Below, piece by piece: positions 2,274 through 8,267 of a stretch of DNA of 8,267 nucleotides. The DNA lies in IMG/VR virus record IMGVR_UViG_2582580933_000007, positions 1 to 8,267 of that record, one strand, 5' to 3'. The stretch's first letter is position 1; every line of letters starts with the position of its first letter. The DNA comes from a virus. Its lineage: Duplodnaviria; Heunggongvirae; Uroviricota; Caudoviricetes. The notes below the pieces were generated by a model. It did not search any database, was not told the DNA's origin, and was given only the letters and a program-made list of their open reading frames with translations. The position numbers were made by a program, and so were the translations under genes.

Positions 2274-2699
2274 TCAATGTACTGCCACAGCATTTCCTGC
2301 CGGGCCACCACGGTTCATCTGATTGAAACCGGCGATTACCACTGCGACAAAATCATCAGCGTCTCTCACCAATCGCTCCCGCGTCTCCACCAGCTCCCGA
2401 AAATAAGCTGAACTGTGGCTGCGCATTCTGGCCACCAGCAAAGGTGGCATTGCTTTTTCGATAGCTGGTAACAACGCCTGAATTTTTTTAACCGCATCAG
2501 GGGTGTCTTTCTCCACCCAGCGGAAAATTTTCTGAGTATTGCGAGCCAGAGCTTCCGGATGGCTGTCGTCATACAGTTCCGGGAACGTCATTCCCAGCTC
2601 GAAATACGCTTTGGTAATTTTCGCAGCAGGTACTTTTTCGCCGTCCGGATGCGCCCAGACATTCATCGCCATGCGGATGTGTTCATGCTTGATTTTCAT
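2274..2699 (-). CDS. ydaT: YdaT-family protein (CII-like regulator of Rac-type prophages)
   Basis: 141-aa ORF beginning MKIKHEHIRMAMNVWAHPDGEK, an N-terminus I recognise from memory as YdaT family. Lies immediately downstream of the Cro-like gene with an ATGA start/stop overlap at 2696-2699. Confidence 0.65.
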   Translation of the reverse strand: MKIKHEHIRMAMNVWAHPDGEKVPAAKITKAYFELGMTFPELYDDSHPEALARNTQKIFRWVEKDTPDAVKKIQALLPAIEKAMPPLLVARMRSHSSAYFRELVETRERLVRDADDFVAVVIAGFNQMNRGGPAGNAVAVH

Positions 2700-2998
2700 G
2701 AATCAACTCCATCAGATAAGCATGCACTACAATCACCTTCAGCATGAACTACATGCGTTTGCCCCAAACGAATGCCGCTAGCATACTCAGGCCAAATAAG
2801 CTCCCAATCATGGGGTCGTAGCTCCGCCCTACTTACTTGGCCTTCCGTCGCAGATTCGATCATAAGGGCGCGGGTTGGAGATATAGCTGCTCGTCCGGAC
2901 GCCATTTGCGATAAGTAAGATGGCGATACACCAAGTCTGGCCGCGAATTTCTTAGCATCACCAACCCTCAATGATTTAATAAACTCTTTTAATGTCAT
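2696..2998 (-). CDS. ydaS: YdaS-family Cro-like HTH regulator
   Basis: 100-aa ORF. HTH segment AARLGVSPSYLSQMASGRAAISPTRALMIESATEGQVSRAELRPHDW matches the YdaS/Cro-like family pattern. SD GAGGAAGG upstream of ATG 2998..2996. Divergent from the repressor gene. Confidence 0.7.
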   Translation of the reverse strand: MTLKEFIKSLRVGDAKKFAARLGVSPSYLSQMASGRAAISPTRALMIESATEGQVSRAELRPHDWELIWPEYASGIRLGQTHVVHAEGDCSACLSDGVDS

Positions 2999-3095
2999 AC
3001 CTTCCTCGGTTTAGTGTTTTCTTGCGAGTTTAGTGTTTAATAAACCATTAAGTCAAGTATTTGCTTGTTTAGTGATTACTAAAGATAATTACCAC
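2999..3095. promoter_or_regulatory. OR-like divergent promoter/operator region between the Cro-like (minus) and repressor (plus) genes
   Basis: Three direct copies of GTTTAGTG (3009-3016, 3028-3035, 3067-3074). Imperfect palindrome GTTTA-A-TAAAC at 3035-3045. Minus-strand promoter candidate: -35 TTGACT (revcomp of 3051-3056), 18-bp spacer, -10 TAAACT (revcomp of 3027-3032). Plus-strand promoter candidate: -35 TTGCTT (3061-3066), 17-bp spacer, -10 GATAAT (3084-3089), which would put the transcription start at or next to the repressor ATG at 3096. Confidence 0.55.
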
Positions 3096-3467
3096 ATGCA
3101 GAAAAAAGAAATTCGCCGTTTACGTCTCAAGGAGTGGTTTAAAGATAAAACTCTGCCACCCAAAGAGAAGAGCTACCTATCTCAACTAATGAGTGGGAGG
3201 GCCTCGTTTGGAGAAAAGGCTGCCAGAAGAATAGAGCAAACATACGGGATGCCGGAAGGGTATCTGGATGCGGAATACGCAGAACAACCGGAGATTTCTC
3301 CACCACATGCAGGGTTAACGTCTAATCAACTGGAATTATTGCAGATTTTTTCAGCCTTCCCTGAGGATGAGCAACGCCAGATAATCAGCGAGTTAAAGCA
3401 GAAAAAAGAATCAATGGAAGATCTCATAGCGAGATGGATTGCGGCGCAAAAATGCCGCCGCGCCTAA
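3096..3467 (+). CDS. paaR2: cI/DicA-like HTH repressor; PaaR2-like regulator of the three-component TA module
   Basis: In frame with the ORF-track 3033..3467 (GTG); first ATG at 3096. N-terminal HTH_XRE-like segment KEKSYLSQLMSGRASFGEKAARRIEQTYGMPEGYLD. C-terminal LTSNQLELLQIFSAFPEDEQ resembles the DicA C-terminal motif as I recall it. No SD before the ATG, consistent with a leaderless mRNA. Sits in the cI position, divergent from the Cro-like gene and directly upstream of the antitoxin/toxin pair. Confidence 0.65.
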   Translation: MQKKEIRRLRLKEWFKDKTLPPKEKSYLSQLMSGRASFGEKAARRIEQTYGMPEGYLDAEYAEQPEISPPHAGLTSNQLELLQIFSAFPEDEQRQIISELKQKKESMEDLIARWIAAQKCRRA

Positions 3468-3487
3468 GTTATAAAACCGGAGGAAAC

Positions 3488-3679
3488 ATGAATAGAGCCC
3501 TTTCACCAATGGTTTCTGAATTTGAAACCATTGAACAAGAAAACAGTTACAACGAATGGCTGCGTGCGAAAGTAGCAACGAGCCTTGCAGATCCGCGCCC
3601 AGCAATTCCCCATGACGAAGTTGAGCGCAGAATGGCAGAACGCTTTGCTAGAATGCGCAAGGAACGGAGCAAGCAGTAA
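3488..3679 (+). CDS. paaA2: ParD-like antitoxin (PaaA2) of a ParE-family toxin
   Basis: 63-aa ORF from ATG 3488 (internal start of ORF-track 3434..3679), SD GGAGG 4 nt upstream. Sequence MNRALSPMVSEFETIEQENSYNEWLRAKVATSLADPRPAIPHDEVERRMAERFARMRKERSKQ matches my recollection of PaaA2. Stop TAA 3677-3679 is 1 nt before the toxin ATG. Confidence 0.7.
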   Translation: MNRALSPMVSEFETIEQENSYNEWLRAKVATSLADPRPAIPHDEVERRMAERFARMRKERSKQ

Positions 3680-3680
3680 A

Positions 3681-3959
3681 ATGTTACCCGTGTTATGGCT
3701 TGAAAGCGCAGATACCGACCTAGATGATATAACCAGTTATATTGCTCGTTTCGACATAGATGCGGCTGAACGCTTATGGCAGCGATTAAGGGGTTGTGTG
3801 CTGCCGTTATCCGAACATCCGTATTTATACCCACCAAGCGACAGAGTACCTGGCTTGCGTGAGATTGTGGCCCACCCTAACTATATAATTCTATACCGCG
3901 TAACAACATCAAGCGTTGAAGTAGTAAACGTGATCCACGCAAGACGCCAGTTTCCCTAA
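3681..3959 (+). CDS. parE2: ParE/RelE-family toxin (ParE2)
   Basis: 92-codon ORF from ATG 3681, in frame with ORF-track 3585..3959. Sequence MLPVLWLESADTDLDDITSYIARFDIDAAERLWQRLRGCVLPLSEHPYLYPPSDRVPGLREIVAHPNYIILYRVTTSSVEVVNVIHARRQFP carries ParE-family hallmarks (LREIV...YIILYRV...V..V.H.RR). Tightly coupled to the upstream antitoxin gene. Confidence 0.75.
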   Translation: MLPVLWLESADTDLDDITSYIARFDIDAAERLWQRLRGCVLPLSEHPYLYPPSDRVPGLREIVAHPNYIILYRVTTSSVEVVNVIHARRQFP

Positions 3960-4029
3960 CTTTAACTACCAATAGAAACATAACAACCGCAACGACTTTA
4001 CCAAAAGCGTTGTGTTTGTTACGCCCCAC

Positions 4030-4072
4030 GGTTTAGTTTTTGCTTGACTTAAGTTTAATGTTTATTAAACTA
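4030..4072 (+). promoter_or_regulatory. OL/PL-like operator-promoter, a second copy of the OR operator module, driving the plus-strand early operon
   Basis: GGTTTAGT at 4030-4037, GTTTAATG at 4053-4060, palindrome GTTTA-T-TAAAC at 4060-4070. The 18-bp module GTTTA(A/G)TGTTTA(A/T)TAAAC occurs at 3028-3045 and 4053-4070. Promoter candidate: -35 TTGACT 4044-4049, 16-bp spacer, -10 TAAACT 4066-4071. Confidence 0.5.
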
Positions 4073-4250
4073 AAAATACCAACCCACCCCGCCCCACAGA
4101 ACGCAGGGCAATACTTCGAGTTACCCGGCAGTGGTCAGGGGTTAAGTAGCCAGCCCGAGGCGTAAGAACATGACGGCAGGGTTCAACTTTAATAACTATG
4201 CAGCAGGTTTTTGTTCCGCTACCCCGGCGTTAAGGGGAAATGAGGTCAAC

Positions 4251-4406
4251 ATGGATACTATCGATCTTGGCAACAACGAATCTCTGGTGTACGGCGTGTT
4301 TCCCAACCAGGACGGCACGTTCACCGCGATGACGTATACCAAAAGCAAAACGTTTAAAACCGAAAATGGTGCCCGTCGCTGGCTGGAAAGAAACTCAGGT
4401 GAGTGA
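4251..4406 (+). CDS. Small protein (51 aa), YdaF-like small protein of Rac-type prophages (tentative)
   Basis: ATG 4251 is preceded by TGAGGT with a 4-nt spacer. Translation MDTIDLGNNESLVYGVFPNQDGTFTAMTYTKSKTFKTENGARRWLERNSGE. The ORF track offers a longer form from ATG 4170 (78 aa), which has SD GAGG with a 9-nt spacer; the true start is unresolved. First gene downstream of the PL-like promoter. Confidence 0.55.
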   Translation: MDTIDLGNNESLVYGVFPNQDGTFTAMTYTKSKTFKTENGARRWLERNSGE

Positions 4407-4407
4407 T

Positions 4408-4536
4408 ATGGATTTCGACACAATCATGGAAAAGGCTTACGAAGAATACTTCGAAGACCTTGCCGAAGGCGAAGAAGCTCTCAGCTTCAGTGAGTTTAAA
4501 CAGGCGCTTTCCAGCTCGGCAAAATCTAACGGCTGA
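4408..4536 (+). CDS. Small acidic protein (42 aa), YdaG-like (tentative)
   Basis: Below the ORF-track length cutoff; found by hand. ATG 4408 overlaps the stop region of the preceding gene (GTGATATG). SD AGGTGA with a 5-nt spacer. Translation MDFDTIMEKAYEEYFEDLAEGEEALSFSEFKQALSSSAKSNG, stop TGA 4534-4536. Confidence 0.5.
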   Translation: MDFDTIMEKAYEEYFEDLAEGEEALSFSEFKQALSSSAKSNG

Positions 4537-4565
4537 TAAGCGAAGTAGCACCGCGAGGAATCAGT

Positions 4566-4784
4566 ATGCAGAAACGAGAACCCGTCATAATCGCGCCAGA
4601 CTATACCGATGATGAACTTTATGAGTGGATGCGCCAGAAAATTAATGCAGCGCAGGATCTGAAATGGGCTAATGAAGCCAGGGCTAAGCAGGCTGAAAAT
4701 CTGTCCGCTCTGGAGCAGGATATCACCAGGCTGGAAAAAGCAGCGGCATTAAGCATTGCCAGAATGATTACATACCCGCGTTAA
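4566..4784 (+). CDS. Hypothetical protein (72 aa)
   Basis: ORF-track frame; SD GAGGAA with a 5-nt spacer before ATG 4566. Translation MQKREPVIIAPDYTDDELYEWMRQKINAAQDLKWANEARAKQAENLSALEQDITRLEKAAALSIARMITYPR. No family recognised. Confidence 0.6.
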   Translation: MQKREPVIIAPDYTDDELYEWMRQKINAAQDLKWANEARAKQAENLSALEQDITRLEKAAALSIARMITYPR

Positions 4785-4806
4785 TAGCTAACCAACGAGG
4801 CTAATA

Positions 4807-5136
4807 ATGGAATTTAAAGATTTACCAATGCAATTCCAGGAAATGGCAGCGAATATAGTTCGTTCCCAACTGGCGACTCTTGACCTGAGTACCGTAGAAA
4901 AAGAAACCATCGATACTATATCCGGTAACGTGCGTCGTGCCTTTATCGGTCTGTACGAAGAGAAGAAGCTCTCTGATAACCAGGATTTACATGAAAAATA
5001 CTTCCTGGATCTAATGGACATCATTAATAAGGGGTTTGGCTTGTTAATGGAAAAGAAAGGGATTCGGATAGAACCCCTTGAAAATTGCTTCGTAACAAGA
5101 AGCATCAATTCTTTTGATTCAAAACAAGAGAATTAA
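4807..5136 (+). CDS. Hypothetical protein (109 aa), AT-rich codon usage
   Basis: ORF-track frame; SD GAGG with a 6-nt spacer before ATG 4807. Hydrophilic, Lys/Glu/Ile/Asn-rich. Its 3' end overlaps the convergent minus-strand gene by 32 bp. No family recognised. Confidence 0.6.
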   Translation: MEFKDLPMQFQEMAANIVRSQLATLDLSTVEKETIDTISGNVRRAFIGLYEEKKLSDNQDLHEKYFLDLMDIINKGFGLLMEKKGIRIEPLENCFVTRSINSFDSKQEN

Positions 5137-5380
5137 TTACAGATTTAACATGCTCTTTCTCATGATTGAAGCTCTCAGGGTTGAAAGTGCCCGGCTGAAG
5201 CGAGTCGATATAATCAACGAGATTCTTTCGTACCGTTTCATCTTTATTCATGGCAGATGCAAGGTATGAAATTGCTAACAATGTTATATCACTACGCGCC
5301 GCAGCATGCTGTAGTGTTTTATCAAAATCATTAATTTTCCGTATAAGAGAGTTAAGAGTTTCATTGACATCAAACCCCAT
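5105..5380 (-). CDS. Hypothetical protein (91 aa), antisense to the PL-like operon; likely moron
   Basis: Internal ATG 5380..5378 of the ORF-track frame 5105..5713, with strong SD AGGAGG (revcomp of 5386-5391) 5 nt upstream. Translation MGFDVNETLNSLIRKINDFDKTLQHAAARSDITLLAISYLASAMNKDETVRKNLVDYIDSLQPGTFNPESFNHEKEHVKSVINSLVLNQKN. The upstream 111 codons of the track ORF start at a TTG with no SD and are Arg/Pro/Cys-rich, so I treat them as non-coding. Confidence 0.5.
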   Translation of the reverse strand: MGFDVNETLNSLIRKINDFDKTLQHAAARSDITLLAISYLASAMNKDETVRKNLVDYIDSLQPGTFNPESFNHEKEHVKSVINSLVLNQKN

Positions 5381-5946
5381 TTCATCCTCCTGAGGGTTAG
5401 TAATTAAGGAGTTCTCCACGGGTGAGGTGGAGTGCGTGCGCCGGACACGGGTGAGCATCCGGCACTGACAGTTTACTGAAAGGATATCTCCCTGAAAAGT
5501 CAGGGCATAACGCGAAAGCGCACGGCGAAGTTGTTGGTTCATAGATAGCCTGTCGTTAAATTTTCGTCGACCGTGCGCTTCCGGTTGTGGCACTCCGCGA
5601 AATGGCGCGGCGGTAAGTATGGCGGGGTTATTCCTTCCCCGTTGAGGACACCGGGTTGTCAGGTTGACCATACGCTTAAGTGACAACCCCGCTGCAACGC
5701 CCTCTGTTATCAATTTTCTGGTGACGTTTGGCGGTATCAGTTTTACTCCGTGACTGCTCTGCCGCCCTTTTTAAAGTGAATTTTGTGATGTGGTGAATGC
5801 GGCTGAGCGCACGCGGAACAGTTAAAACCAAAAACAGTGTTATGGGTGGATTCTCTGTATCCGGCGTTAATTGTTAACTGGTTAACGTCACCTGGAGGCA
5901 CCAGGCACCGCATCAACAAAGTTCATTTGTAAAAATGGAGATAATT

Positions 5947-6168
5947 ATGATTGCTCATCACTTCGGAACTGATGAGATTCCTCGTCAGTGCGTGACTCCC
6001 GGTGATTATGTTATTCATAAAGGAAGAACATATATTGCTTCGGTAAACAACATTAAAAAACAACGGCTCTATATTCGTGATTTTTCCACACAACACTGTA
6101 TTAAGGAAACCATGATTAAAGTCTTCCTTGGTCGTGATGGTTTACCTGTAAAAGCAGAGTCATGGTGA
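5947..6168 (+). CDS. Hypothetical small protein (73 aa), AT-rich
   Basis: In frame with ORF-track 5935..6168. I prefer ATG 5947, which has SD GGAG (5937-5940) 6 nt upstream; the ATG at 5935 overlaps that SD. Translation [73 protein letters not shown]. Lies directly upstream of the exonuclease gene. Confidence 0.5.
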
Positions 6169-6291
6169 GCAGTAATAAAATAACTGCCACAATACGACAT
6201 TCAGCTTAATGAATACATCAGATTTGATTCTTATATGCCAGCAATGGCAGGGATTTGTTCATCCTTAAATCTGTCATGAGGTTAAAACAAA

Positions 6292-8267
6292 ATGAGTAAA
6301 GTCTTTATTTGCGCCGCCATTCCGGACGAACAGGCAATAAAGGAAGAAGGTGCAGTTGCTGTAGCCACTGCCATTGAAGCCGGTGACGAACGCCGCGCCC
6401 GTGCCAAATTTACCTGGCAATTCCTGGAGCAATATCCGGCTGCTCAGGACTGCGCTTATAAATTTCTTGTCTGCGAGGATAAACCTGGCATACCCCGCCC
6501 TGCCCTCGATTCATGGGATGCTGAATATATGCAGGAAAACCGCTGGGATGAGGAGTCTGCTTCTTTTGTCCCGGTTGAGACGGAATCCGATCCGATGAAC
6601 GTCACTTTTGACAAGCTGGCCCCTGAAGTACAGAACGCTGTCATGGTTAAGTTCGACACATGTGAAAACATCACCGTTGATATGGTTATTAGCGCACAGG
6701 AATTGTTGCAGGAAGACATGGCAACATTCGACGGACATATCGTTGAAGCGTTGATGAAAATGCCAGATGTTAACGCCATGTATCCGGAGCTTAAGCTGCA
6801 TGCCATCGGGTGGGTTAAGCATAAATGTAAGCCTGGTGCCAAATGGCCCGAAATTCAGGCAGAGATGCGCATCTGGAAAAAACGTCGCGAAGGTGAACGC
6901 AAGGAAACCGGAAAATACACGTCTGTTGTTGATCTCGCCCGCGCCAGAACCAATCAACAGCACACTGAAAATTCAACAGGAAAAATCAGCCCGGTCATTG
7001 CTGCCATTCATCGCGAATACAAGCAGACATGGAAAACACTGGATGACGAACTGGCCTACGCTCTCTGGCCTGGTGATGTGGATGCCGGAAACATTGACGG
7101 CAGCATCCATCGCTGGGCAAAAAATGAAGTTATCGACAACGACCGCGAAGACTGGAAGCGTATCTCGGCATCAATGCGCAAACAGCCTGATGCCCTTCGC
7201 TACGACCGCCAGACTATTTTTGGCCTTGTCCGTGAACGTCCGATCGACATTCACAAAGACCCTGTGGCACTGAACAAATACATTACTGAATACCTGACTA
7301 CAAAGGGCGTGTTTGAAGATGAAGGAAGAAATCAGAGCGCAACTGATACTCTCTCGTCGCCAGTACCAGAAACTGATGCAGTGGAAACGGCAATTCCGGA
7401 CAACGAAAAAACCGAATGCAAAGTGGAAGTCGAACCATCTGTAGAGCGTGAGGGGCCGTTCTACTTCCTCTTCACCGACAAGGATGGCGAAAAATACGGT
7501 CGCGCAAACAAACTTTCTGGTCTGGATAAGGCACTGGCTGCCGGGGCTACTGAAATCACCAAAGAAGAATACGTCGCCCGAAAAAATGGCACATACACAG
7601 GCTTACCGCAAAATACCAATGCCGCACAAAACTCTGAACAACCAGAGCCGGTAAAAGTTAACACGGTCGAAACAAATAAAAAAATGGAGACAGAAAATCT
7701 GCCTGATGCAGACAAAGTGCTTGCTGCATCACGTGGTGAATTTGTTGAAGGAATTAGCGACCCGAATGATCCGAAGTGGGTTGAGGGGATCCAGACTCGC
7801 GATTCTGTGTACCAGAATCAGCAAGAAATGGAACAGAACGACCAGAAAGCGGAACAAAACAGCCCGGATGCGCAACAAAACGGGCCAGAAGTGCAACAGT
7901 CAGAGCCAACAGCACAACAGGAGACTGAAAAAAGCTGCAATACTTGCGGCCGGGCTGGCGGCGGAAAATGTCCGGACTGCGGGCCTGTTATGGGTAACAC
8001 AACATATCAGGAAACATTCGATGAAGAAAATCTGGCTGAAAAAGATTCGGAGAAAATGGAAAGCACTGCGCATTCTCGTAAGGAGAGCGCTGGTGACGCT
8101 CAGCATGGCAATAGCAGTGATGAAACTGGCGAGACGGCAAATCCCCTAATTACGGTGAACAGTCATCATAAATACATATCCACCAGCAACAGAATGTGGA
8201 CTCATATGATGATCGACCTGGAAACCATGGGAAAAAATCCTGATGCCCCGATCATCTCAATAGGTGC
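6292..8267 (+). CDS. RecE-like (exodeoxyribonuclease VIII family) prophage exonuclease; 5' end complete, 3' end beyond the window
   Basis: Stop-free frame from ATG 6292 to the window edge (at least 658 codons); absent from the ORF track because it has no in-window stop; in-frame TAA at 6283-6285 just upstream. Segment DADKVLAASRGEFVEGISDPNDPKWVEGIQTRDSVYQNQ matches a RecE linker segment as I recall it. Also contains a Q/E-rich quasi-repeat, a CxxC-x7-CxxC motif (7936-7980) and MMIDLETMG (8206-8232) resembling the Exo I motif of DEDD exonucleases. The ORF-track frames 6374..6598, 6456..6842, 6511..6963, 6767..7273, 7448..7654, 7461..7715, 7706..8149, 7818..8000 and 7900..8106 are shadows of this gene. 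Confidence 0.7.
   Translation, partial: MSKVFICAAIPDEQAIKEEGAVAVATAIEAGDERRARAKFTWQFLEQYPAAQDCAYKFLVCEDKPGIPRPALDSWDAEYMQENRWDEESASFVPVETESDPMNVTFDKLAPEVQNAVMVKFDTCENITVDMVISAQELLQEDMATFDGHIVEALMKMPDVNAMYPELKLHAIGWVKHKCKPGAKWPEIQAEMRIWKKRREGERKETGKYTSVVDLARARTNQQHTENSTGKISPVIAAIHREYKQTWKTLDDELAYALWPGDVDAGNIDGSIHRWAKNEVIDNDREDWKRISASMRKQPDALRYDRQTIFGLVRERPIDIHKDPVALNKYITEYLTTKGVFEDEGRNQSATDTLSSPVPETDAVETAIPDNEKTECKVEVEPSVEREGPFYFLFTDKDGEKYGRANKLSGLDKALAAGATEITKEEYVARKNGTYTGLPQNTNAAQNSEQPEPVKVNTVETNKKMETENLPDADKVLAASRGEFVEGISDPNDPKWVEGIQTRDSVYQNQQEMEQNDQKAEQNSPDAQQNGPEVQQSEPTAQQETEKSCNTCGRAGGGKCPDCGPVMGNTTYQETFDEENLAEKDSEKMESTAHSRKESAGDAQHGNSSDETGETANPLITVNSHHKYISTSNRMWTHMMIDLETMGKNPDAPIISIG

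Follow-up and report, generated by a model that had tools for sequence, protein, structure and literature searches.

The 97-bp intergenic region at positions 2999-3095 of the window, by which we mean the whole 8,267-nucleotide stretch of viral DNA analysed here, is with a probability of roughly 0.93 the right-operator region (the OR equivalent) of a CP-933P-type lambdoid immunity switch. CP-933P is the cryptic lambdoid prophage of E. coli O157:H7 that is also designated Sp12. The features of the region are real, functional and already published: the 97-bp paaR2/ydaS intergenic region of CP-933P is the subject of Jurenas et al. 2021 (mBio 12:e02947-21, PMC8630535). What appears to go beyond the published work on this locus is the conservation across genera of its leaderless promoter-to-gene geometry and of two of its operators.

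Identity of the locus

In the window, paaR2 and ydaS are divergently transcribed across the 97 bp. Orthologues of PaaR2, YdaS and YdaT are all encoded, paaA2-parE2 lies downstream of paaR2 in the same operon, and 18-bp repeats with GTTTAGTAA half-sites lie over both promoters and recur in a PL/OL copy. This gene order, ydaT-ydaS on one side and paaR2-paaA2-parE2-PL on the other, is that of CP-933P/Sp12, with an identical PaaR2 DNA-binding domain (PMC8630535). The genes and the region between them are:

2274-2699, minus strand: ydaT, functional CII equivalent; Pfam YdaT_toxin PF06254, function from PMC8630535 and PMC9986795.
2696-2998, minus strand: ydaS, Cro-like regulator of 100 aa; PDB 8C7K, 'Phage antirepressor protein Cro', E = 7e-63; Pfam YdaS_toxin and HTH_3.
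2999-3095, no strand: paaR2/ydaS intergenic control region; EMSA primers FL1 and FL2 at 2999-3018 and 3074-3095, zero mismatches.
3096-3467, plus strand: paaR2, CI-like repressor of 123 aa with an HTH N-terminal domain; residues 1-65 identical to PDB 7NKV and 8C3K.
3488-3679, plus strand: paaA2 antitoxin; Pfam PaaA2 PF21217, E = 1e-19.
3681-3959, plus strand: parE2 toxin; Pfam ParE_toxin PF05016, E = 2e-16.

Both PDB entries matched by PaaR2 are titled 'Phage repressor protein CI'. The protein is identical to EDL933 PaaR2 at 121 of 123 residues, with both changes in the linker (E66/I67 vs GG). Searches with the paaR2 product returned no Pfam family and no S24 peptidase domain, and the sole strong PDB match was its own N-terminal domain; PaaR2 has been reported to lack a peptidase motif and to be unresponsive to mitomycin C (PMC8630535). 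YdaS matches its EDL933 counterpart at 99 of 100 residues, with A37 instead of T37; this Ala-for-Thr codon (2888-2890) falls inside the stretch matched by Pfam HTH_3 (residues 16-50). Against Pfam P22_Cro, YdaS gave a weak, sub-threshold match (16.6 bits vs a cutoff of 30.2).

All sixteen primers from the published study that we tested are exact on an EDL933-derived locus (L002, genome WS4202) and collinear on the window. Mapped through them, the 73-bp PRM/PR reporter corresponds to 3023-3096, the PL-gfp fragment to 3960-4077 and the PRE fragment to 2671-2790. The 97 bp agree with the WS4202 locus at 96 of 97 positions, the sole change being C3021 vs T. This base adjoins the predicted PR start and is a T in EDL933, the allele on which the published experiments were made (PMC8630535).

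Of 5426 complete E. coli genomes, 582 carry a segment of about 1.1 kb around the region at near full length. Strain Z1323CEC0003 matches this segment at 100% identity, and Escherichia phage Evi, whose genome is deposited, at 99.6%; neither differs from the window in the 97 bp (LR597642.1, 5400-5496, in the phage). The 40-kb deposited genome of Evi carries the whole ydaT-ydaS-paaR2-paaA2 block, which indicates that the module is not limited to defective prophages. The parE2 DNA is also there, although the record does not annotate parE2.

The window itself is a mosaic, in which CP-933P-type immunity DNA is confined to 2285-4240 (95.7% identical to EDL933), between flanks at 1-2284 and 4241-8267. 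Its replication genes encode a lambda-P-like protein (711-1373) and a DnaT-domain protein (1165-2208), and are unlike those beside the same immunity region in strain Z1323CEC0003 and in EDL933, where CP-933P has an HTH and ATP-binding pair as its replication module.

Divergent promoters and transcription starts

The promoters and associated signals of the locus are:

2689-2706, no strand: YdaT operator OM, TTGATTTTCATGAATCAA; exact match to the published TTGATTN6AATCAA (PMC9986795).
3003-3007, minus strand: Shine-Dalgarno GAGGA of ydaS, read from the sequence; the ydaS mRNA is leadered, unlike that of paaR2.
3027-3056, minus strand: PR933P-type promoter of ydaS-ydaT; -35 TTGACT (3056..3051), 18-bp spacer, -10 TAAACT (3032..3027).
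3061-3089, plus strand: PRM933P-type promoter of paaR2-paaA2-parE2; -35 TTGCTT (3061-3066), 17-bp spacer, -10 GATAAT (3084-3089).
3096-3098, plus strand: paaR2 start codon and transcription start; 5' RACE, MQKKE N-terminus and intact mass (PMC8630535).
4031-4071, plus strand: PL933P promoter, TTGACT, 16 bp and TAAACT at 4044-4071, with OL-type 18-bp repeats at 4031-4048 and 4053-4070.

A preliminary description of the region had read back-to-back divergent promoters from these same PR and PRM hexamers. They are present where it placed them, the 73-bp PRM/PR reporter fragment includes them, and both PR933P and PRM933P have been confirmed by 5' RACE, with a gfp fusion further documenting PR933P activity (PMC8630535). 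Our comparison with the published hexamers and +1 positions is based on primer mapping and on the running text of that paper. The experiments that the preliminary description had proposed were in fact already in print: 5' RACE located both starts as predicted, EMSA and footprinting showed that PaaR2 and YdaS bind the 97 bp, and reporter fusions gave the anticipated outcome (PMC8630535).

When the window was scanned with a promoter consensus, the minus-strand promoter was called (9/12 matches), as was the near-identical promoter at 4044-4071. The plus-strand promoter scored below threshold at 8/12 (3/6 to TTGACA, 5/6 to TATAAT), which fits the weaker basal activity of PRM933P compared with PR933P (PMC8630535). 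The PL933P segment lies downstream of parE2, contains GTTTA...TAAAC repeats and is a paralogue of the PR/IR3 segment described below; it is the OL equivalent of the published study, in which PL933P is repressed by PaaR2 and YdaS (PMC8630535). The OM site stretches across the stop codon of ydaS and the start codon of ydaT and adjoins the fragment carrying PRE933P (2671-2790), a promoter activated by YdaT (PMC8630535).

A leaderless repressor message and a promoter-to-ATG geometry conserved across genera

The preliminary description had further proposed that the repressor mRNA is leaderless and that its gene lacks a Shine-Dalgarno sequence. The first proposal is borne out by 5' RACE, which maps the paaR2 start to its start codon, and leaderless translation has been demonstrated by Western blot, N-terminal sequencing (MQKKE) and an intact mass of 15,081 Da, the MQKKE N-terminus and expected mass being obtained for protein made from its own promoter as well as from a +1 fusion construct (PMC8630535). 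The second holds in the window, where none of the tetramers GGAG, GAGG, AGGA or AAGG occurs in the 20 nt upstream of the paaR2 ATG. In the window the GATAAT hexamer is followed by 6 nt (TACCAC) and then by the ATG at 3096. The message is weakly structured over its first 60 nt (z = +1.37), in keeping with a leaderless start. An in-frame GTG at 3033, opening a 144-aa ORF, was considered as the true start of the gene and was ruled out by the N-terminal sequence and by the PDB constructs, which start MQKKE.

A scan of one genome per species yielded 27 PaaR2-like loci with 44-76% identity, and 22 of these have a divergent YdaS-like gene. We aligned 17 PaaR2-like loci from about a dozen genera: E. 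coli, Escherichia sp., Raoultella, Enterobacter, three Yersinia, Erwinia, Winslowiella, Acerihabitans, Arsenophonus, Photorhabdus caribbeanensis, Mycoavidus, Glomeribacter, Massilia and a record labelled Martelella. Xenorhabdus and most Photorhabdus loci (L005, L006, L008-L012, L016 and L017) were left out of the alignment; in the roughly 60 nt upstream of position 1501 they have a different, longer upstream region, which ends ...CTTATAAATAAA-ATG and has no clear Shine-Dalgarno sequence. Majority-base frequencies over the 17 loci were:

PR -10: 0.98.
PR -35: 0.87.
PRM -35: 0.98.
PRM -10 (CAAAAT in relatives): 0.94.
ydaS leader: about 0.5.
6 nt before the ATG: 0.51.

The 17-bp PRM spacer is kept in 17/17 loci. 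The ATG is likewise invariant, and the gap that separates it from the -10 hexamer measures 6 nt in 15 of the 17 loci; of the other two, one has 5 nt and one has 7 nt. A constant spacing, a freely varying sequence and no Shine-Dalgarno sequence are together what is expected if transcription begins on the start codon, and the comparison gives independent support to the hexamers named in the preliminary description and to the 6-nt gap between -10 and ATG. In two Yersinia loci and in Mycoavidus, CAAAAT is followed by 6 nt and ATG, and the 6-nt gap is itself -10-like. In most relatives the ydaS-like CAT is preceded by CCTC or CTCC, which read GAGG or GGAG as reverse complements.

Variation within E. 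coli was largely uninformative, since identity is 95% or higher in 593 of the 612 genomes that match, and one divergent allele was useful (L003/L004). Its regulators are 74% identical to those of the window, and it keeps TTGACT/18/TAAACT, TTGCTT/17/GATAAT and the 6-nt gap, in which TACCAC is changed to GTATGT. The -10/6 nt/ATG geometry, the lack of a Shine-Dalgarno sequence and the cross-genus conservation support a predicted paaR2 start on its ATG in the window's allele as well.

It could be argued that paaR2 is expressed chiefly from a leadered transcript, initiated at PRE933P inside ydaS/ydaT or at another upstream start, and that the leaderless 5' end is minor or artefactual. PRE933P does exist and is activated by YdaT, the window contains an exact OM at 2689-2706, and the GTG at 3033 leads into the 144-aa ORF. 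However, protein from the native promoter and from the +1 fusion has the MQKKE N-terminus and the expected mass, no Shine-Dalgarno sequence precedes 3096, the 6-nt gap is fixed across genera while its sequence is free, and upstream conservation takes the form of promoter and operator blocks, not of codon-like variation; we regard a chiefly leadered paaR2 as very improbable. The leaderless mRNA is nevertheless not the sole route to paaR2: PRE933P would yield a transcript with a long leader.

Operators

The sequence GTTTAGTG occurs at 3009, 3028 and 3067, in each case on the plus strand, and has no other copy on either strand of the 8267-bp window. Dinucleotide shuffles of the window give an expectation of 0.20 copies, and none of 200 shuffles reached the three copies that lie here within 66 bp. 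When the 97 bp alone were shuffled, some 8-mer reached at least three copies in 197 of 20000 shuffles (about 1%). A palindrome, GTTTAATAAAC (GTTTA-A-TAAAC), lies at 3035-3045. Palindrome strength alone is not significant, as 3031 of 20000 shuffles (15%) of the 97 bp, which have 32% GC, equalled the best 18-bp score; with palindrome statistics this weak in the 97 bp, we rely on the enrichment at the level of the window, on the published experiments and on conservation.

The published description of the region is of four equally spaced 18-bp inverted repeats with the half-site consensus GTTTAGTAA, of which IR1 overlaps PRM933P and IR3 lies over PR (PMC8630535). We scored every 18-mer against this half-site, with the following result:

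3009-3026, no strand: IR4, weak; halves 7/9 and 4/9; the left half, the only one that matches the consensus, is the first GTTTAGTG.
3028-3045, no strand: IR3, halves GTTTAGTGT and TTAATAAAC; 7/9 and 8/9; overlaps the PR -10 and spacer.
About 3047-3064, no strand: IR2, weak, at an inferred position; left half ATTAAGTCA, 6/9; overlaps the PR -35.
3067-3084, no strand: IR1, halves GTTTAGTGA and TTACTAAAG; 8/9 and 8/9, with 7/9 palindromic pairs; fills the PRM spacer and touches the -10.

IR2 was placed with the help of the published text (PMC8630535) and of the 19-20-bp interval that separates the other three repeats. The repeated operator motifs of the preliminary description, three GTTTAGTG copies and the GTTTA-A-TAAAC palindrome, are therefore present, but the units they belong to are 18-bp inverted repeats and not direct repeats plus an 11-bp palindrome. 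The second GTTTAGTG and the palindrome together make up one operator, IR3, while IR1 has the third GTTTAGTG as its left half and adjoins the PRM -10 with its right half. The palindrome does lie in the spacer of the minus-strand promoter and the third GTTTAGTG in that of the plus-strand promoter, in agreement with the coordinates in the preliminary description.

Conservation divides the four repeats. Majority-base frequencies over the same 17 loci were:

IR3 halves: 0.91 and 0.88.
IR1 halves: 0.77 and 0.92.
IR4: about 0.5; not kept outside E. coli.

Because two of the four repeats are kept in distant genera and the other two are not, the comparison points to IR1 and IR3 as the putative core operators. 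Reverse-complementing the consensus of the relatives, GTTTATTAAACACTAAAC, gives exactly the IR3 of the window, so that in the E. coli lineage the two half-sites have changed places; a swap of this kind argues for dyad-symmetric recognition. On this comparison, the E. coli lineage would have flipped IR3 and added an extra weak repeat.

HTH repressors of the PaaR2/YdaS kind generally bind DNA as symmetric dimers. This speaks against a reading in which the units of recognition are not 18-bp inverted repeats occupied by such dimers but direct GTTTAGTG repeats bound head-to-tail, a reading for which the three exact direct copies can be cited. Beyond E. coli, however, IR1 and IR3 are kept in both halves but the first of those copies (3009-3016) is not, and the flip of IR3 with respect to the other genera would leave a dyad-symmetric site unaffected, which does not hold for a directional site. 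We consider direct-repeat recognition unlikely and retain the inverted repeats as the recognition units.

The AT-rich composition of the region raises a more general doubt, namely that the motif cluster is a chance product of intergenic DNA with no regulatory role. At 32% GC, with the best 18-bp palindrome score equalled in 15% of shuffles of the 97 bp, the dyads would not by themselves dispel it. Against it stand the confinement to this region of all three GTTTAGTG copies in 8.3 kb where 0.2 would be expected, the blocks kept across genera and the paralogous repeats at PL; it is refuted by published EMSA and footprints, in which PaaR2 and YdaS bind specifically here (PMC8630535). A chance origin is thus next to impossible, and the repeats are best read as operators.

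Distribution of the control region

The conserved core of the control region spans 63 bp and has a mean identity of 73% to the window, compared with 66% for the first 180 nt of paaR2, which encode the DNA-binding domain. The core is kept near base-for-base in prophages of about a dozen genera, among them Yersinia, Raoultella, Erwinia, Arsenophonus, Mycoavidus, Glomeribacter and Massilia, while the regulators are about 50% identical overall. On balance, we lean slightly towards the view that this core, consisting of the PR and PRM hexamers, two GTTTAGTAA-type repeats and a -10 hexamer placed 6 nt from a leaderless ATG, is an ancient module that is widely spread in prophages.

Nearly the same control region occurs in the Burkholderiales Mycoavidus (L024), Glomeribacter (L027) and Massilia (L031), and these copies suggest wide horizontal spread. 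It also occurs on a 5-kb scaffold labelled Martelella alba (L026), an alphaproteobacterium, which may be contamination.

Regulation and a model of the switch

The regulation of the EDL933 allele has been characterized in detail. In EMSA, several complexes form on the 97-bp fragment with PaaR2 and likewise with YdaS, and in DNase I footprints PaaR2 protects about 78 bp and YdaS 27 and 32 bp, in both cases spanning the two promoters (PMC8630535). In gfp fusions both proteins repress both promoters, up to 45-fold, with PaaR2 having its stronger effect on PR and YdaS on PRM. At a low level, PaaR2 apparently has a stimulating effect on PRM, an observation based on leaky expression rather than on a designed experiment. 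Expression states are bistable and heritable, and bistability is lost in stop-codon mutants (PMC8630535).

Applied to the window, these data would give the following switch. PR933P, a predicted sigma-70 promoter on the minus strand, would drive a leadered mRNA with a Shine-Dalgarno sequence for ydaS, the Cro analogue, and ydaT, the CII analogue; the weaker PRM933P, also presumed to be of the sigma-70 type and on the plus strand, would drive paaR2-paaA2-parE2 from the A of the paaR2 ATG. PaaR2, as the CI analogue, and YdaS would compete for the overlapping 18-bp GTTTAGTAA operators, that is, IR1, IR3 and the weaker flanking repeats. PaaR2 at IR3 and neighbouring repeats would block PR, and YdaS at IR1 would block PRM, with YdaS needing a higher concentration to occupy its own promoter than to occupy PRM. 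A high level of either protein would repress both promoters, and mutual repression may then hold two heritable expression states. YdaT on TTGATTTTCATGAATCAA would activate PRE and so provide an alternative paaR2 transcript, and the PL/OL segment at 4031-4071 would serve as the distal operator set. In this scheme, we infer the bases contacted by each protein, the order in which single repeats are occupied and looping to OL.

Relation to lambda and to the Rac prophage

An analogy with lambda PR/PRM and its leaderless cI message, drawn in the preliminary description, is made explicitly by the authors of the published study (PMC8630535). The divergent repressor/cro layout is visible in the window's sequence, and the sharing of operators follows from the published binding data (PMC8630535). 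In common with lambda OR, the locus has back-to-back divergent promoters, operators common to both regulators with opposite preference, a repressor mRNA that is leaderless and starts on its AUG, a distal PL/OL copy, and a CII-type activator with a PRE-type promoter. It differs in that lambda has three 17-bp operators, OR1-OR3, whereas the window has 18-bp repeats, two strong and two weak, at a spacing of 19-20 bp. Lambda CI undergoes autocleavage through an S24 (LexA-like) domain and is RecA/SOS-inducible, but PaaR2 has no S24 autocleavage domain, and because of this the switch is not SOS-inducible. The place of rexAB in lambda is taken here by paaA2-parE2. Neither lambda CI nor lambda Cro was among the PDB sequence matches of PaaR2 and YdaS; the locus works like the lambda CI/Cro switch and is not its homologue.

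The RacR/YdaS/YdaT locus of the Rac prophage in E. coli K-12 has the same Pfam families, YdaS_toxin and YdaT_toxin, and the same divergent layout. Its YdaS and YdaT are only 26% and 31% identical (PMC8630535), its operators differ, and no toxin-antitoxin pair follows the repressor.

Discussion

The promoters, the leaderless repressor mRNA, operator occupancy and bistability of this locus have been in print since 2021, and structures for each of the three regulators became available later. That a lambda-like switch and a leaderless gene were recovered from raw sequence in the preliminary description amounts to a validation of that reading. The useful addition made here is comparative: the candidacy of IR1 and IR3 as core operators bears on a question that the authors of the published study left open (PMC8630535), and the conserved promoter-to-ATG geometry provides a natural set of leaderless genes for studies of leaderless translation outside E. 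coli. If the core is indeed an ancient and widely spread module, there would be a large family of repressors, not inducible by the SOS response, that share leaderless expression, and perhaps immunity specificity too, across Enterobacterales and Burkholderiales.
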